Positions 11,377-61,606 of a DNA stretch of 61,815 nt are shown one piece after another (within the stretch, counting starts at the first letter, position 1; each line of letters opens with the position of its first letter). The notes under the pieces were generated by a model. The model was given only the letters and a program-made list of their open reading frames with translations. It was not told where the DNA came from and searched no databases. This stretch comes from Patescibacteria group bacterium (GTDB lineage: Bacteria > Patescibacteriota > Minisyncoccia > Phycocordibacterales > DATDWN01), in the NCBI GenBank assembly GCA_013816135.1, contig JACDEV010000003.1:1-61815 (forward strand), read 5' to 3'. Position numbers and translations under genes: made by a program.

Positions 11377-11943
11377 ATGCATAAATTATCCACACTAGAC
11401 ATTGTCGTAATAGCTATTGTCCTCATCATTCTTCCTCTACCCTTCTTCTTTTTTGGTAGCAAAGTTGTTACAACTACGAACTTACGGTACTTGGTAAAAG
11501 CGGAAGTGCCTTTGCGACTTTCCATTCCATCTATAGGAGTGGACACAGATATTATTAAAGTTGGCCTAACGAGCGCCGGAGCGATGGATACCCCAAAAGG
11601 ACCGAAAGAAGTAGCTTGGTATGAACTTGGTCCGAAGCCTGGCGAAAATGGTGCATCAGTTATTGCTGGTCATAGCAGTTGGAGTAATAACATACCTGCT
11701 GCGTTTGATAATCTGCCTAAACTAAAAGTAGGAGAAAAAGTATATGTTAAAGATGTGGAAGGTAAGACTACAACTTTTGTGGTAAAAAGCAGTAGACTGT
11801 TCGATCCAAAAGCTGATGCAGGTATTGTATTTAATTCAACATCTGGCAAACATTTAAACCTTATAACTTGTGCTGGTGTGTGGGATGAAGCTACAAAAAG
11901 TTCAAGCAAGCGTTTAGTTGTATTTACTGACTTAGTAGAATAG
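11377..11943 (+). CDS. sortase family transpeptidase
   Basis: N-terminal TM helix, IAGHS, and the catalytic-Cys motif LNLITCAG (TLxTC-like), then RLVVF. Confidence 0.8.
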   Translation: MHKLSTLDIVVIAIVLIILPLPFFFFGSKVVTTTNLRYLVKAEVPLRLSIPSIGVDTDIIKVGLTSAGAMDTPKGPKEVAWYELGPKPGENGASVIAGHSSWSNNIPAAFDNLPKLKVGEKVYVKDVEGKTTTFVVKSSRLFDPKADAGIVFNSTSGKHLNLITCAGVWDEATKSSSKRLVVFTDLVE

Positions 11944-11949
11944 TAGAAT

Positions 11950-12024
11950 GCCGTTGTAGTTCAGTGGTAGAATACTGTCTTGGTAAGACAGTGGTCGTGG
12001 GTCCGATTCCCACCAACGGCTCCA
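11950..12024 (+). tRNA. tRNA-Thr (GGU), CCA encoded
   Basis: Acceptor GCCGTTG/CAACGGC, anticodon loop TTGGTAA, T arm GTGGG-TCCGATT-CCCAC (C at position 55). Confidence 0.9.
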
Positions 12025-12171
12025 AGAAAAAATATGTTTTTTCTTCTGGGAATCGGACGACGGAGCGGGCACACAGCGAGCTCGCTGGGTCGCGAGTCGG
12101 TGCCCAGACTAAAATGTTTTGACGAAAACATTTTAAGTCGAGGGAGATTTCCATCAACAGCTCAAAGAAAA
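12025..12171 (+). repeat. tRNA-linked GC-rich structured element, copy A
   Basis: In order: A/T hairpin; reverse complement of the tRNA-Thr T-loop/stem; GACGGAGCG; hairpin; CGCGAGTCGG; long hairpin; 22/26-nt copy of the tRNA 3' end plus trailer. Confidence 0.6.
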
Positions 12172-12186
12172 TAATAAATATAAATT

Positions 12187-12480
12187 ATGGAAGGAATAAA
12201 TATACCAGGAAATCAAGAAGAAGAAAAAAATATTATTGTCGCCAGAATAACTGCGTTGCGTGACCATTTATTCCAAACATCGGATACAATTCTTTATAAT
12301 AATGAAGTTTATAGAAAAGCAGAAGAGTTAAGAAGTAAGTATCCTGATTATGATGATTATATAGCTTATCGTATTCTTATAAGTGGTGGGGAAAAAGTTC
12401 CTGAGACTAGTATTAATTTTCCAAAAACAGATTTTGCAGGCGAAGATTCCGTGGAATTGTTTTTCAAGAATTATAAATAG
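12187..12480 (+). CDS. hypothetical protein
   Basis: 97-aa ORF with host-like composition. No motif recognised. Confidence 0.4.
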   Translation: MEGINIPGNQEEEKNIIVARITALRDHLFQTSDTILYNNEVYRKAEELRSKYPDYDDYIAYRILISGGEKVPETSINFPKTDFAGEDSVELFFKNYK

Positions 12481-18357: not shown

Positions 18358-18540
18358 CAAAATAGCGAAGCTATTTTCCTGTCCAGAAGCAAAGCGTAGC
18401 TTTGCGCTTGGACTCGAACGACGGAGCGATTCGTGTTTTAACAAAAACACGACGCGAGTCGGCGCCTAGACTTTTTCCGAGCGACGGCAAGGAAAAAAGT
18501 CGGAGGAGAGAGTGTACTCACGATCCAAGTCTGGCAGCCA
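18358..18540 (+). repeat. tRNA-linked GC-rich structured element, copy B (ends in a second tRNA-Gln 3' end with CCA)
   Basis: A/T hairpin; TGTCCAGA; hairpin; CTTGG+ACTCGAA (inverted T-loop); GACGGAGCG; hairpin; CGCGAGTCGG; hairpin with GAGCGACGGC loop; CCAAG TCTGGCA G CCA. Confidence 0.6.
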
Positions 18541-45548: not shown

Positions 45549-45625
45549 TTATTTAGAGTACGCACTTTTCTTGCTAGAAAAGATGCTCGAATCCTCGCGC
45601 CGTCGCGCTCTGAGCCTCTAAATAA
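45549..45625. repeat. GC-rich 63-nt core repeat (copy X) enclosed by a 10-bp flanking stem
   Basis: Core 45556-45618 is 62/63 identical to 52892-52954. TTATTTAGAG (45549-58) pairs with CTCTAAATAA (45616-25). Confidence 0.7.
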
Positions 45626-52879: not shown

Positions 52880-52966
52880 CATAATTTTTTGGAGTACGCA
52901 CTTTTCTTGCTAGAAAAGATGCTCGAATCCTCGCGCCGTCGCGCTCTGGGCCTCCAAAAAATTATG
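52880..52966. repeat. GC-rich 63-nt core repeat (copy Y) enclosed by a 15-bp flanking stem
   Basis: Core 52892-52954. CATAATTTTTTGGAG (52880-94) pairs with CTCCAAAAAATTATG (52952-66). Confidence 0.7.
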
Positions 52967-52971
52967 ACTCA

Positions 52972-53889
52972 ATGCAATTTTCCCTAAATACAATGCAAAA
53001 ACTACTAAAATATTTTGCAATTCTGTCATTTCTTCTACCCATTTCACTTTTTGCTTTTGTCGTACCTGCAAAACCAACTGGATTTGTTCAGGATTATGCA
53101 AATATACTTTCTCCAGAGCAGATAAATCAGCTCGAGACGAAACTTGAAGCTTACGAGAAAAATACTACAAATGAAATTGCTGTTGTGACGATTCAGTCCC
53201 TTGATGGTGATGCTATTGAAAATGTTGCACAGGATATTTTTACGAAGTGGGGAATCGGTAAAAAAGATAAGAATAACGGAGTTTTACTTCTAATTTCTCT
53301 TTCTGATAGAAAAACTAGGATCCAAACGGGTTACGGTGTTGAGGGACAGCTTACAGACATAGGAACATCCTATATTCAGAGAGAAATTATTACTCCAGCG
53401 TTTAGAAATGGTGATTATTATTCGGGTATAAATGGAGCGGTAGATAAGATGATAGAAGCTTTAGGTGGAAATCAAATAGTTCCATTAGATTACGCTGTTT
53501 CTCAAAGAACCTCCAGTTTTCCTTGGAATTTTATTTTAATTTTTATTATCTTTGGTGTTCAAATCCTTACTGCAGTGCTTGCTCCATCTAAGTCTTGGTG
53601 GGCTGGTGGAGTTATCGGTGGAGTTTTTGGAGGAATAATTTGGCTTACAAATATTGTTTCTGGAATATATGCAATATTTGCATTTATTGTTCTAGTCATT
53701 CTTGGATTGATTTTTGATTATTTTGTTTCTAAGGCTTACACACAAAAAAAGACAACAGGATCATTTCCTCCTTGGTTTTTCTGGGGAGGTGGAGGTGGAG
53801 GATTCGGCGGGGGTAGAAGTGGAGGAGGTGGTTTCGGAGGATTTGGTGGAGGTTCATCAGGTGGTGGCGGATCTTCGGGAGGGTGGTAA
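52972..53889 (+). CDS. TPM-domain (YgcG-like) membrane protein with a Gly-rich tail
   Basis: VQDYANILSPEQ ... EIAVVTIQSL ... NNGVLLLISLSDRKTRIQTGYGVEGQLTD. Follows lemA, the usual pairing. Confidence 0.8.
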   Translation: MQFSLNTMQKLLKYFAILSFLLPISLFAFVVPAKPTGFVQDYANILSPEQINQLETKLEAYEKNTTNEIAVVTIQSLDGDAIENVAQDIFTKWGIGKKDKNNGVLLLISLSDRKTRIQTGYGVEGQLTDIGTSYIQREIITPAFRNGDYYSGINGAVDKMIEALGGNQIVPLDYAVSQRTSSFPWNFILIFIIFGVQILTAVLAPSKSWWAGGVIGGVFGGIIWLTNIVSGIYAIFAFIVLVILGLIFDYFVSKAYTQKKTTGSFPPWFFWGGGGGGFGGGRSGGGGFGGFGGGSSGGGGSSGGW

Positions 53890-53911
53890 ATCCGCACACT
53901 AACTTTCATTT
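53890..53911. repeat. left arm of a 22-bp perfect inverted repeat flanking the GIY-YIG gene
   Basis: ATCCGCACACTAACTTTCATTT is the exact reverse complement of 54170-54191. Confidence 0.9.
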
Positions 53912-53915
53912 CGTT

Positions 53916-54182
53916 ATGTTTTATATGTATATATTAAAAAGTAAGAAAAATGGCGAACTATATGTTGGTTCTACCAATAATCTGCGAGCTAGATTTATAA
54001 AACATAACAAAGGAGAGGTGACTTCTACACAGAGCAAAAGACCTTACATCTTAGTTTATTACGAGGCATATACTGCAGAAGGAGATGCGCGTAGACGTGA
54101 AAAAATGATAAAGTTAAGAGGACAAGCAAGGAATCAATTAATACTAAGATTAAAAGATACACTAGCGCAAAATGAAAGTTAG
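53916..54182 (+). CDS. GIY-YIG nuclease family protein (stand-alone Uri-type domain)
   Basis: YMYILKSKKNGELYVGSTNNLRARFIKHN (GIY...YVG...R...H/N) and a later E. The stop codon lies inside the right inverted repeat. Confidence 0.75.
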   Translation: MFYMYILKSKKNGELYVGSTNNLRARFIKHNKGEVTSTQSKRPYILVYYEAYTAEGDARRREKMIKLRGQARNQLILRLKDTLAQNES

Positions 54183-54202: not shown

Positions 54203-54706
54203 ATGAACAACATACCTGAAGTAAAAGATAAAGAATTGCATCGTATTGCCACAACAGTTCTAATTTATAAACCAGACTTTACATATCTCATTACTAGACG
54301 AGCACTTCATAAAAAAATGATGCCAGGTAAGTGGACTATTCCTGGTGGAGGTTTAAATATCGATGATTATATACATCTTCCTCCACATTCTGAAGGTGCA
54401 CCACAATGGTATGGAGCTTTGGAAAACAGTATGAGACGAGAGATAAAAGAAGAAGTAGATTTAGAAATTGGAAAATGTGAAATGCTAACTGACCTGACTT
54501 TTATTCGTCCAGATGGAATACCTGTGATTTGCTTCAGTTACTTTACGCCATTTATTTCAGGTGAAGTTAAGTTTGACCAAGATACTGAAGGAGATACTAT
54601 CGATGCAAAATGGGTGACCTTGGAAGAAGCTTCGAGGTATGATTTGATAGATGGGATTTGGGATGAGATAAAAGATGTGGAAAATATTTTAAAGTCACGG
54701 AAGTAA
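54203..54706 (+). CDS. NUDIX hydrolase
   Basis: GGGLNIDD ... MRREIKEEVDLEI Nudix box. Confidence 0.8.
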   Translation: MNNIPEVKDKELHRIATTVLIYKPDFTYLITRRALHKKMMPGKWTIPGGGLNIDDYIHLPPHSEGAPQWYGALENSMRREIKEEVDLEIGKCEMLTDLTFIRPDGIPVICFSYFTPFISGEVKFDQDTEGDTIDAKWVTLEEASRYDLIDGIWDEIKDVENILKSRK

Positions 54707-54722
54707 TTCTATAATTTTAATT

Positions 54723-54860
54723 GGAGAGTTCGCATAGCGGTCTGGTGTTGAAATGCGATGAGCATTTCAAAGACGGAGCATGGCGATGCGAGTCGGGGTC
54801 GAGGAAATTTTTTCCAAAAAATTATCCGTGACCGAGCTTGGAAAGCGGGTGCTATAATGG
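54723..54860 (+). pseudogene. disrupted copy of tRNA-Ser(GGA) carrying structured element copy C
   Basis: 54723-54747 matches the 5' 25 nt of the intact tRNA (1 mismatch). An 88-nt insert (54748-54835) carries GACGGAGC...GCGAGTCGG. Then comes the anticodon arm CGAGCTTGGAAAGCGGGT. No T arm or 3' acceptor strand. Confidence 0.6.
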
Positions 54861-54869
54861 TTTTTAATT

Positions 54870-54956
54870 GGAGAGTTCGCATAGCGGTCTAGTGCGCTCG
54901 CTTGGAAAGCGGGTAGGGAAGCAATTCCCTCAGGAGTTCGAATCTCCTACTCTCCG
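54870..54956 (+). tRNA. tRNA-Ser (GGA)
   Basis: Acceptor GGAGAGT/ACTCTCC, anticodon loop TTGGAAA, long variable arm, T arm AGGAG-TTCGAAT-CTCCT. TATAAT lies 11 nt upstream. No encoded CCA. Confidence 0.9.
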
Positions 54957-55127
54957 CAAACAAATTGTTTGCAATTTGTTCGTGAGAGTAAGTAAGGTCA
55001 TGTTATGACCTTACGTGGAGATTCGAAAGACGGAGCGGGTACTAGTCGAGCACGACTGGTCGCGAGTCCGGGTAGGGAAAATTTTCGAGCGACGGCCATA
55101 AAATTATTCCTGACCGAATTTCTCCGC
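54957..55127 (+). repeat. tRNA-linked GC-rich structured element, copy D
   Basis: A/T hairpin; GAGAGT; hairpin; GGAG+ATTCGAA (inverted T-loop of tRNA-Ser); GACGGAGCG; hairpin; CGCGAGTCCG; hairpin with CGAGCGACGGCC loop; CGAATTTCTCC GC. Confidence 0.6.
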
Positions 55128-55159
55128 TATAACTTTTAGTTGTGTTAAAATAAGAATAT

Positions 55160-59812: not shown

Positions 59813-59902
59813 GGAGGGTTGGCAGAGTGGTCTAATGCGCCGCACTCGAAACGCGGTTGGGGGTTTACCTCCTCACAGGTTCAAATCCTGTACCCTCCGC
59901 CA
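59813..59902 (+). tRNA. tRNA-Ser (CGA), CCA encoded
   Basis: Acceptor GGAGGGT/ACCCTCC, anticodon loop CTCGAAA, long variable arm, T arm ACAGG-TTCAAAT-CCTGT. Confidence 0.9.
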
Positions 59903-60020
59903 AAATTGAAAATCAGAATTGGAAGCCGAAACGGGGTCGCGCCGAAGGCGCGACACAAACGCATTCCCCCCAAAAAATCCTGAATCTGAAAGGGTTCGCC
60001 ACGCAGAGCGTGGCTCCTCG
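59873..60020 (-). pseudogene. remnant of a serine-recombinase C-terminal tail, antisense to and overlapping tRNA-Ser(CGA)
   Basis: The minus-strand frame reads EPRSAWRTLSDSGFFGGN AFVSRLRRDPVSASNSDFQFWRRVQDLNL*. This parallels the C-terminus of the intact recombinase (EPRSAWRTLSDSGFFGGN SEQTALRADHIFASEPDFVFWRYVLD...). Confidence 0.55.
59963..60016. repeat. left arm of the 54-bp perfect inverted repeat bracketing the recombinase gene
   Basis: ATTCCCCCCAAAAAATCCTGAATCTGAAAGGGTTCGCCACGCAGAGCGTGGCTC is the exact reverse complement of 61430-61483. Confidence 0.95.
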
Positions 60021-60037: not shown

Positions 60038-61606
60038 ATGAATAATCACACCAGAAAATTTTTCATCTATACTCGCAAATCTACCGATACAGAAGATCGG
60101 CAAGTTAGAAGCATTTCGGATCAACTGGCCGAGTTAAAAGAGTTAGTGGTTAAAGAACAAATTGAGGTTGTTGATATTTTCGTGGAAAAGCAAACTGCTA
60201 AAGCTCCGGGTCGGCCAGTATTCAATGAAATGCTTCTCCGTATCGAAGCAAATGAGGCGAGTGGGATTTTAGCGTGGCATCCTGACCGCCTAGCTCGTAA
60301 TTCTGTTGATGGTGGAAAGATAATATATTTGCTTGATACGGGAAAAATTGCCGAGCTAAAATTCCCAACTTTCTGGTGTGATACTACGCCACAAGGTAAG
60401 TTCATGCTTTCCATTGCTTTCTCTCAATCCAAATACTATATCGATAACTTATCGGAGAATATCAAGCGTGGACACAGAAACAAAGTGAAAGACGGTATAT
60501 GGCCTCAAATGTCGCCTCTGGGCTATGTAAATGTCAAAGGTGCTGGAATAGTACCCGATGAAAATATCGCTCCGTTAATCAAGAAAACATTTGAGGCCTA
60601 CGCAACTGGAAATTTCACTTTGCGACAACTGCACGATAAGTTTAACGCTCTTGGATTGAGTAGAAAGAATGGAAAGGTGCTTTCCGTTTCAAACTATCAA
60701 CAAATTTTGAAAAATCCGATATTCACGGGGTTAATGAGATATAGTGGTGAAATATACGAAGGAAAGCACAAACCGATTATCACAAAGAAACTTTTTGATT
60801 CTGTTCAAGAGGTGATGAGTCGAAAATCTAAACCGCATAGCAAAGGACTGAAACCATTTTTGTATAGAGGATTTTTCCGTTGTGGAGAATGTGGATGTTT
60901 TATCACTACCGAAACACAGAAAGGTCATAACTATTTGCGATGTACTAAACGGAAAAATCCTTGTTTGCAAAAATATGTCCGTGAAGAAATCATCACTTCT
61001 CAAATTGCAGAAAGTATCAAAAAAGTTTCTTTGCCACTCGATTGGACAAATTGGATGATTGCCGAAAATGAAAAAGATCGGCAATCAGAAACCCAATCGA
61101 GTGAGATTTTTTCTCAAAAAACAAAAGATGAAATTTCTCTTTTAGATTCAAAAGTTGAAAAGTTGATGAACTTATATTTAGAAAATGTTTTGTCTTTGGA
61201 AGAATATCGTGATTCTAAAAATAAGTTAGTGAATCAAAAACAACTTTTAAAAGAGAAATTATCGGCTTTTGAGAAAAAATCTCATAATCGGTTCGAACTT
61301 ACCGATAAATTCCTAAAAGCCAATGTATCCAATATGGAATTGGCTAACGAGAAAACAAATGAAGAAATTCTTCATTTGTTTAAAAAAGTCGGTTCGAACT
61401 TTCAAATCTTGAATCGAACCGTCTTTTTTGAGCCACGCTCTGCGTGGCGAACCCTTTCAGATTCAGGATTTTTTGGGGGGAATTCAGAACAGACGGCACT
61501 TCGTGCCGACCATATTTTTGCTTCCGAACCCGATTTCGTTTTTTGGCGGTATGTTCTGGACAAAGTTCGAACCTTTTTTGAAATGAATCCTGACGAAGAA
61601 ATCTGA
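60038..61606 (+). CDS. large serine recombinase (integrase/invertase type)
   Basis: Resolvase catalytic domain (IYTRKSTDTEDRQ, HPDRLARN), recombinase domain, zinc ribbon (CGECGC...LRCTKRKNPC), coiled coil. Adjacent to a tRNA gene. Confidence 0.9.
   Translation: MNNHTRKFFIYTRKSTDTEDRQVRSISDQLAELKELVVKEQIEVVDIFVEKQTAKAPGRPVFNEMLLRIEANEASGILAWHPDRLARNSVDGGKIIYLLDTGKIAELKFPTFWCDTTPQGKFMLSIAFSQSKYYIDNLSENIKRGHRNKVKDGIWPQMSPLGYVNVKGAGIVPDENIAPLIKKTFEAYATGNFTLRQLHDKFNALGLSRKNGKVLSVSNYQQILKNPIFTGLMRYSGEIYEGKHKPIITKKLFDSVQEVMSRKSKPHSKGLKPFLYRGFFRCGECGCFITTETQKGHNYLRCTKRKNPCLQKYVREEIITSQIAESIKKVSLPLDWTNWMIAENEKDRQSETQSSEIFSQKTKDEISLLDSKVEKLMNLYLENVLSLEEYRDSKNKLVNQKQLLKEKLSAFEKKSHNRFELTDKFLKANVSNMELANEKTNEEILHLFKKVGSNFQILNRTVFFEPRSAWRTLSDSGFFGGNSEQTALRADHIFASEPDFVFWRYVLDKVRTFFEMNPDEEI
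61430..61483. repeat. right arm of the 54-bp perfect inverted repeat (inside the recombinase 3' coding region)
   Basis: GAGCCACGCTCTGCGTGGCGAACCCTTTCAGATTCAGGATTTTTTGGGGGGAAT. Confidence 0.95.

Follow-up and report, generated by a model that had tools for sequence, protein, structure and literature searches.

Directly behind a tRNA-Thr(GGU) gene of a Patescibacteria group bacterium (assembly GCA_013816135.1, contig JACDEV010000003.1) lies a GC-rich, structured stretch of DNA, at 12025-12171, which ends in a degenerate copy of the 3' end of that same tRNA gene. What is this element, and how did it come to sit there? An earlier note, in which a first model read the letters alone and without database searches, had described it as a structured element of no recognised family, with three further copies in the same 61,815-nucleotide (nt) stretch of DNA, hereafter the window. 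The analysis reported here establishes that these copies belong to a family with a conserved fold of the sense strand, oriented insertion specific for tRNA loops, a target duplication that spares the tRNA, gain, loss and tandem reiteration, and a guide segment matching its target across many tRNAs. The reading that we prefer, and for which we regard the balance as about even, is that of guide-directed, non-coding, non-autonomous, site-specific insertion elements.

Parts of the element downstream of tRNA-Thr(GGU)

The host gene, which is also the target, occupies 11950-12024 on the forward strand (called by ARAGORN; 68 bits with the Rfam tRNA model), and all parts of the element lie on this strand. 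Its T-loop and T-stem form the target segment, T1 (12001-12012). Between target and guide, the tRNA trailer contains a weak, terminator-like A/T hairpin (AGAAAAAATATGTTTTTTCT, 12025-12044), which a simple terminator scan did not call; strong hairpins with a GC stem and a T-run stand at the equivalent trailer position in L136, L123, L138 and L147 (L labels denote the Patescibacteria loci, from genomes or metagenomes, compared with the window). The guide, TGGGAATCGGAC (12047-12058), is the exact 12-nt reverse complement of T1 and provides the 5' strand of a helix, P1. It is followed, in this order, by GACGGAGCG, a palindromic hairpin, CGCGAGTCGG, a long hairpin and T2. In terms of fold, P2 (12059-12098) consists of a proximal GAC/GTC helix, a GGA/GA internal loop, a GCG/CGC helix and a variable hairpin (12068-12090), with family covariation at every one of its pairs and a loop consensus of CGNAG/CGAG. 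P3 (12103-12144), of the 'A' subtype, rises from a CCC/GGG base through a GACT/AGTC helix and a long A/U helix to a GACG terminal loop, with an A bulged from its 3' strand; it shows compensatory changes relative to the L127 orthologue, and the GACG loop is found again across the family. T2 (12146-12171) is the degenerate tRNA duplicate, running from T-loop to trailer with 22/26 identity to 12005-12030, the 7-8 nt at its start serving as the 3' strand of P1. Indeed, a covariance model built purely from metagenomic relatives finds this copy at 12043-12159 (61.5 bits, E 2e-18) and pairs 12048-12054 with 12146-12152 as P1.

Every part that the earlier note had listed behind tRNA-Thr is present in the sequence, including the exact reverse complement and the 22/26 duplicate. 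These last two are real; the note had, however, treated them as curiosities of one locus, yet guide and target duplication define every copy, and the 'structured element' is therefore better described as a tRNA-targeted insertion element. As a side observation, the T-loop of this tRNA-Thr (12001-12007) reads TCCGATT, with C in place of U55, a residue nearly universal in tRNA T-loops; the same holds for the Thr tRNAs of L127, L123, L132 and L143.

Four copies with a common layout

The motif GACGGAGC..N4-34..GAGTC occurs at 12059, 18420, 54772 and 55029, always on the forward strand, where 0.04 occurrences are expected and none of 100 shuffles reaches four. Local GC content is 0.54-0.57 against about 0.26-0.36 in the flanks, and the helix between the two motif strands has a different sequence in each copy while pairing in all four, as had been noticed from the letters. 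Each copy folds to a common three-way junction (z-scores of -2.9 to -4.0), and three of the seven tRNA genes in the window carry such elements.

The four copies and their relatives share one layout, which reads, 5' to 3', T1 inside the tRNA, spacer, guide, P2, one junction nucleotide, P3 and T2. The spacer is the rest of the tRNA, often with a terminator-like hairpin and often with a further hairpin, P0, that has a YYGC loop, and T2 is a duplicate of the target together with what comes after the target. The guide closes the junction by pairing with T2 (P1) and is equally able to pair with T1. Each unit measures about 110-180 nt and is non-coding, without an open reading frame (ORF).

The second copy (18359-18540, forward strand; model match of 61.7 bits, E 1.9e-18) follows tRNA-Gln(CUG) and comprises two hairpins, the guide (18408-18419), P2 (18420-18460), P3 (18465-18506), a small hairpin (18510-18521) and T2 (18522-18539). 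The fourth, behind tRNA-Ser(GGA) (54958-55127, forward strand; 102.4 bits, E 5e-32), likewise has two hairpins, then the guide (55016-55027), P2 (55029-55068), P3 of the 'B' subtype, GGGTAG..CTGACC (55070-55115), and T2 (55116-55127). The third (54723-54852, forward strand; 53.9 bits) is a 5'-side insertion: it starts with a duplicated promoter and nt 1-25 of tRNA-Ser (to 54747), followed by a hairpin with the guide as its 3' strand (54762-54770), P2 (54772-54794), P3 (54796-54833) and T2 (54834-54846), and the intact tRNA-Ser(GGA) lies downstream, from 54870. Its guide, GCATTTCAA, is complementary to the anticodon loop and stem, of which a short duplicate stands after P3. The claim that all four share the same architecture thus holds for the junction, but not for the third copy (54748-54835 in the note), which is upstream of its tRNA and whose guide addresses the anticodon loop and stem instead of the T arm. 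The D-loop insertions of L134 and L127 and the anticodon-loop insertion of L165 are of this 5'-side form too.

The small hairpin of the second copy has counterparts. At window 18510-18521 and in L203, L212, L215, L272, L274 and L313, a mini-hairpin of 10-12 nt, G(Y)GTA(M)TC(R)C, comes just after P3 and interrupts the T-loop copy of the duplicated target; it could be a fourth stem that only some elements have, or a very small insertion in its own right.

A covarying three-way junction

In an alignment of 76 sequences, to which the counts in this section refer, RNAalifold predicted an unknotted three-way junction of P1, P2 and P3, with strands of 1-4 nt at the junction and P3 as a long hairpin that usually has a GACG tip. 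Double changes were found in 19 of the 29 pairs of this prediction and double compensatory changes in 26/36 pairs; with P1 included, 91.5% of the cells pair, against 71.4% after shuffling. The covariation score is 0.531 versus 0.178 for shuffled alignments, none of 500 shuffles reaches the observed value, and slid partners give at most 0.149. The suggestion that a single-strand fold is under selection is therefore upheld. Moreover, as G-U exceeds A-C by 35 to 12 in P2 and P3, it is the tRNA-sense strand that folds.

The internal loop of P2 is conserved. Its 5' strand reads CGGAG in 53 sequences, CGCAG in 13 and CGTAG in 3, among others, with G at the first position in 72/76 and the next A invariant, while the 3' strand reads CGAG in 69 and TGAG in 7, with an invariant G-A; from these letters, tandem sheared G-A pairs are plausible. 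The earlier note had compared this loop to a kink-turn, a label that does not fit, because G-N-A opposite G-A has an asymmetry of one nucleotide rather than a 3-nt bulge. It had also taken the two strands around the variable helix to be invariant, which is true of the window's four copies only: in the wider family the proximal helix covaries as GAC/GTC, GGC/GCC, GCC/GGC, AGC/GCT and GTC/GAC. The boundary between P3 and T2 is constant, ...GACC|R.

Family size and association with tRNA genes

The metagenome search for relatives relied on P3 of the 'B' subtype alone (GGGTNGNGRAAATT..AATTATYCNTGACC), a pattern of about 24 base-equivalents with an estimated number of chance matches below one, and it matched at least 120 metagenome contig loci. 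Among the matches listed, P2, which had played no part in the search, was fully paired in 103 of 119 distinct elements, its proximal pairs being GG/CC (33), GC/GC (32), GA/TC (19), AG/CT (10) and GT/AC (4). The covariance model recovers all four window copies. Subtypes A and B belong to one family, given that this model of the metagenome alignment finds both 'A' copies of the window (61.5 and 61.7 bits, E about 2e-18). The model's matches number 16 across 922 kb of related genome loci and 142 across 534 kb from metagenomes; single contigs of about 14 kb have as many as 5-6.

Again among the matches listed, 88 of 125 elements lie at most 350 nt downstream of a tRNA on the same strand, a single one has solely an opposite-strand tRNA upstream, and the adjoining tRNAs represent 17 amino-acid specificities. 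Some elements with no called tRNA may follow tRNAs that ARAGORN missed, a candidate being the minus-strand copy of L156: a group I intron (L156 3101-3304, minus strand, Rfam 58.6 bits) stands on the same strand just upstream of this type-1 element (2752-2879) and may sit in an uncalled tRNA gene.

These results decide on one explanation, inert debris left by local tandem duplication around tRNA genes. A partial tRNA duplication does accompany every copy, but more than 140 members with a conserved, covarying fold are spread over many genomes and tRNAs, and covariation and distribution together refute debris, which we consider almost certainly wrong. The earlier note had made its proposal depend on three findings, and all went its way: no known family was hit, the covariation survived the addition of copies, and the copies are not the debris of local duplication.

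Insertion sites, guides and target duplications

The elements lie in sense with the tRNA. Their insertion points are the T-loop (positions 56|57), the extreme 3' end, the anticodon loop and the D-loop. In the T-loop class, the junction is ...GACC|G57 and the guide, ...TCGAA, complements T54-C56 plus G57 onward, thereby covering the junction (TTC|GA...) on both sides. Targets of the 3'-end class lie across the acceptor end (e.g., CGCAC|AAG), P0 doubles as terminator and the duplicate is about 6 nt; here the junction nucleotides (GCGA, GGAA, GCTT) track the acceptor end of the particular tRNA, which indicates that the guide spans the insertion point.

Guides are 8-19 nt long and match the adjoining tRNA across the family. 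Exact complementarity averages 8.9 nt to the intact tRNA versus 6.3 nt to T2, the match being longer to the intact tRNA in 59/78 elements and shorter in 4/78. Duplications range from about 6 nt in the 3'-end class to 20-28 nt or more, and because insertion duplicates the shorter side of the tRNA, one intact tRNA gene is always left. Of 42 T-loop elements, 9 have a T2 that matches T1 perfectly across 20 nt, and others retain as little as 9/20, which points to a range of ages; the P1-forming 7 nt of T2 are kept at 86-100% against 62-79% for the rest, a comparison confounded by insertions and deletions.

Such insertion points recall those of integrases, and the elements could be relics of att sites or cargo-less miniatures of integrase islands, the tRNA duplicate being the att repeat, the conserved parts protein sites in double-stranded DNA and the fold irrelevant. 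The three places where their direct repeats begin, T-loop, anticodon loop and 3' end, are reportedly the classic integrase sublocations in tRNA genes; the element provides a new tRNA 3' end and a terminator, as attP sites do; and the window has a serine recombinase next to another of its tRNAs. However, units of 110-180 bp are too small for easy circularisation as duplex DNA, the massive compensatory covariation and the bias of G-U over A-C would not be expected of double-stranded sites, the junction is devoid of dyad symmetry, integron-type R boxes occur in 0/76 sequences and no related sequence was found in 50,697 phage or 72,556 plasmid records. We hold this explanation to be very unlikely.

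The same sites can be seen with RNA in mind. Every insertion point falls in a part of the folded tRNA that is single-stranded, be it a loop or the 3' end, and the three-way junction might be a small ribozyme that would cleave and ligate at C|R, in the T1 loop and at the P3/T2 boundary. The RNA unit thereby freed, about 140-180 nt long, would form a circle, attack the transcripts of other tRNAs and return to DNA by reverse transcription, in the manner of retrozymes or viroids. The constant junction ...GACC|R, the circularly permuted but otherwise identical substrates that T1 and T2 would offer, the occurrence of identical tandem units, e.g., in L206, and RNA-like motifs (putative tandem G-A pairs, a bulged A, tolerance of G-U) are all consistent with it. 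Against these stand the lack of any known ribozyme core (the hammerhead motif, CUGANGA ... GAAA, is found in 0/76 sequences, and no Rfam ribozyme matches), junction strands of just 1-4 nt, the absence of a linked reverse transcriptase and the terminators upstream of the core. An autocatalytic RNA thus appears unlikely.

Empty sites, tandem units and exchanged cores

Comparison of orthologous loci reveals gain and loss. In L143, the tRNA-Thr(GGU) site is empty, the tRNA being followed by 26 nt and then the ATG of the same small ORF as in the window, where T2, and not the intact tRNA-Thr, stands 22 nt before that ATG. Similarly, the tRNA-Gln downstream of pyrG is empty in L123, L125, L134 and L136, carries a type-1 element in the window and in L130, and carries an unrelated core with the same architecture in L122, L133, L135, L138 and L155. 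Units repeated in tandem are found in L156, L147, L126, L206 and L278; every one has a trailer, guide and core of its own, and those of L206 are identical. Furthermore, in 14 pairs the two cores share at least 90% identity although their tRNAs and guides differ, and some of these pairs switch insertion class. To judge from these sequences, the unoccupied sites, the tandem arrays and the reuse of near-identical cores with other guides are all signs of a site-specific insertion element.

Two further core types share the arrangement of tRNA, guide and duplicate. The second, found at the orthologous tRNA-Gln site, reads GGGTCGGGAAAC..GTTTCCCGTGGAGGAAGG.. TTGGAAAACCGTGGGTTTCCAA, sometimes with a mini-P2 end (GACGCAGCGAAGCGAG), and occurs in L122 (9500-9690, minus strand), L133 (12888-13045), L123, L135 (12035-12160), L138 (10941-11095) and L155. 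The third is composed of ACCTGT-GATAG-hairpin-CAGA-ACAGGT, then GTACTG, then a short hairpin with a UGUA loop, and occurs in L126 (three tandem units), L133 (6972-7110), L138, L142 (4409-4580), L135 and L156 (12182-12330). Their motifs gave 9 and 25 matches, respectively, in the loci examined, 0 in shuffles and 0 in the window. In addition, L207 (3076-4075) contains two identical elements, each with a duplicated target, around a 183-aa ORF with an IGPS (TrpC-like) domain; the idea of a cassette that it suggested was dropped, as only one example is known and a segmental duplication could explain it.

The distribution of elements also bears on whether they might be resident functional RNAs, co-transcribed with the tRNA, whose guide would pair alternately with the T arm or T2 as a switch or decoy acting on tRNA folding, processing, modification or turnover, and which would have spread by selection rather than selfish mobility. 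In a 226-nt read-through transcript, the minimum-energy fold indeed pairs the guide with the T arm in place of the cloverleaf, the P1-forming part of T2 is the better kept one, and the 5'-side copies sit directly behind a tRNA-type promoter. Nevertheless, orthologous tRNAs do well without an element, one tRNA may bear two or three tandem units or cores unrelated in sequence, copies within truncated pseudo-tRNAs have no tRNA to regulate in cis, and near-identical cores are found at unrelated tRNAs. Since terminator-like hairpins stand between the tRNA and the core, an abundant resident RNA is moreover disfavoured. We therefore see a resident role as unlikely, if a little less so than an autocatalytic RNA.

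A possible mechanism and what weighs against it

In the preferred reading, that of a guide-directed insertion element, the unit consists of a hairpin (often a terminator plus P0), the guide, P2 and P3. The guide would choose the target by pairing with the sense strand of the intact sequence across the insertion point. The active form would be the folded sense strand, either read-through RNA or single-stranded DNA, because duplex circles of 110-180 bp are implausible and the helices tolerate G-U. P1 would dock the target beside the terminus of P3 (...GACC), the conserved P2 loop and P3 would either hold an enzyme that acts in trans or carry out the catalysis themselves, and the regenerated target would permit repeat insertion, giving rise to tandem arrays.

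Several observations weigh against this reading. None of the elements has a linked transposase, integrase or reverse transcriptase, and the sole recombinase of the window, a large serine recombinase, is 5 kb from the nearest copy and has no mechanistic link to it. Neither a circular or excised form nor a transcript was seen. In many copies, a hairpin resembling an intrinsic terminator separates the tRNA promoter from the core, so that RNA of the element would arise by read-through only. P1 is paired in 70% in an ungapped alignment, and P3 appears more conserved than it is, because most copies were found with an exact P3 pattern. Finally, an insertion flanked by direct repeats has no unique placement, and what is here called the guide could have resulted from the insertion chemistry instead of directing it.

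A more far-reaching version of the guide-directed mechanism can be put forward tentatively, as a possibility that we do not favour: the elements may be programmable and protein-less, a folded nucleic acid of about 110-170 nt with its own guide entering tRNA loops, either self-catalysed or through a minimal nuclease without a DNA-binding domain, for which a small GIY-YIG protein is a candidate.

Candidate enzymes near tRNA genes

Short ORFs of the GIY-YIG type (about 60-120 aa, catalytic domain only) number 22 in 1.62 Mb of Patescibacteria loci, and 12 of them are at most 150 nt from a tRNA; examples are window 53883-54182 (forward strand, 99 aa), L278 563-883 and L315 578-868. In L278 and L315, the ORF stands between a duplicated 5' part of a tRNA (35 nt, and 23 nt or more) and the intact tRNA, which is the partial-duplication signature of the 5'-side elements, and both tRNAs bear type-1 elements on their 3' side. 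The enrichment is found near tRNAs generally, and none specific to the vicinity of elements was seen in these loci; GIY-YIG is for this reason a candidate enzyme only. In L278, the pseudo-tRNA-Glu upstream of the ORF (570-600) has two small hairpins (TCCGCCGAAGGCGGA, TCCGCCTCCGGCGGA) in its anticodon loop.

A Pfam scan of 60 ORFs of the window revealed no transposase, integrase or reverse transcriptase gene except the large serine recombinase (Resolvase, Recombinase and Zn ribbon domains; 60038-61606, forward strand), which starts 135 nt past tRNA-Ser(CGA) (59813-59902). Just upstream, an inverted fragment of 44 aa (59885-60016, minus strand) is 68% identical to part of this protein. The region is probably the edge of an integrated element that extends past the window.

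Relation to known families and systems

The earlier note had been unable to match the element to any known RNA family, and the searches agree. At gathering thresholds, Rfam 15 returns only tRNAs in the window and seven related loci, plus one group I intron elsewhere, and in E-value mode it gives nothing on the elements (11940-12200 and 54700-55150). In viral contigs, the loose motif GACGGAGC..GCGAGTCSG had chance matches in GC-rich coding DNA only, and patterns for subtype A, subtype B and type 3 gave nothing or coding-sequence matches only. Full-text searches of the literature turned up no description of the family. Even on the most conservative reading, this structured family is new, abundant, well supported and absent from Rfam.

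Regarding mobile elements with their own integrase, the islands and prophages in tRNA genes resemble the present family in the sublocations used, the restoration of the tRNA, the displaced fragment left as a direct repeat and tandem occupancy. Direct repeats of tRNA parts (T-loop, anticodon loop, 3' end) are indeed present at both ends, but no integrase gene lies inside the 110-180-nt units, which have no ORF, and the family further differs by its single-strand fold, the reverse complement of its target and the 5'-side versions that duplicate a promoter and the 5' part of the tRNA. An att site of a serine recombinase was rejected for lack of dyad symmetry at the junction. Integron attC sites and the attP site of CTX-phi (XerCD) come closer in that helix structure is kept over sequence, the fold is strand-specific and the folded strand could rebuild a duplex target, as P1 would; in contrast, the present elements have no R/L boxes (RYYYAAC ... 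GTTRRRY in 0/76), no IntI and no dif-like site, and their tRNA-loop target varies from copy to copy with a matching guide.

An element-borne complement of the target, and retargeting through a change of guide while the core is kept, are features shared with the exon-binding and intron-binding sites (EBS-IBS) of group II introns, the guide tetranucleotides of IS200/IS605 with the omega-RNA of TnpB, and the bridge or seek RNA of IS110/IS1111. Unlike these, the elements have no intron domains (no Rfam intron match lies on them, at a size of 110-170 nt), no DEDD recombinase, TnpA or TnpB is encoded among the 60 window ORFs scanned, the guide of 8-19 nt spans the junction and the target duplication is long. 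Insertion next to GTTC, as in IS91-type elements, fits the T-loop class and not the 3'-end, D-loop or anticodon classes.

Theta ribozymes, which are related to the hepatitis delta virus (HDV) ribozyme and occur beside phage tRNAs, are likewise small structured elements downstream of tRNA genes on the same strand; they abut the tRNA, form a nested double pseudoknot and cleave at their own 5' end (PMC10879173). The present element differs as a plain, unknotted three-way junction with hairpins between tRNA and core, a guide and a target duplicate; its core begins 22-60 nt or more past the tRNA, and no HDV family of Rfam matches. When the HDV topology was mapped by hand onto T1...guide, P0 proved unfit as P3/L3 and there was no partner for P2. 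Two other ideas on function were discarded: kissing of the P0 loop (CUGC) with the P2 loop (GCAG), for the loops do not covary in the examples read, and a replacement 3' half for tRNA repair, of trans-splicing design, for T2 is often degenerate or truncated.

Lastly, the GC clusters and double-hairpin elements of fungal mitochondria, and the repetitive extragenic palindromic (REP) sequences and miniature inverted-repeat transposable elements (MITEs) of bacteria, are also short, GC-rich, hairpin-forming non-coding repeats of AT-rich genomes that are apparently mobile. These have palindromes or terminal inverted repeats of their own and short target duplications of fixed length, whereas the outer helix of the present family is made of guide and target and changes with each tRNA, the duplication varies from 6 to more than 28 nt and the targets are tRNA loops.

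Other features of the window

A different intergenic element of about 65 nt (..CAGAGCGCGACGGCGCGAGG..GCATCTTTTCTAGCAAGAAAAGTGC..) is present twice, at 45555-45618 and 52890-52955, both on the minus strand and with no adjoining tRNA. It shares modules with the family, namely the CAGAG/CGAG, GACG and UAGCAAG loops, gives weak model matches (13.7 and 13.5 bits) and has an outer helix that is compensatory between the two copies, TAGAG/CTCTA versus TGGAG/CTCCA. Among its proteins, the window encodes CTP synthase, sortase, RF-1, FtsX, GroEL/ES and similar ones, and the nearest CTP synthases, 80-86% identical, are from Candidatus Zambryskibacteria, Paceibacterota and other Patescibacteria genome bins.

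Significance for Patescibacteria and their mobile DNA

Patescibacteria have tiny genomes in which few mobile elements have been described, yet some of their contigs hold five or six copies of the present family in 14 kb. If the guide truly sets the target, the family would be a very small natural system joining a programmable guide to insertion while sparing an essential gene, and it would be relevant to the mechanisms of mobile DNA, to the evolution of guide-directed systems such as group II introns, IS110 and IS605/OMEGA, and possibly to tool building. Should the programmable, protein-less version be true, guide-directed mobile elements would gain a new class, and with it possibly a guided nuclease not seen before. 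In the genomes themselves, the family accounts for the pseudo-tRNA fragments and the spikes of high GC content beside tRNA genes, and its elements merit masking or annotation in metagenome-assembled genomes.

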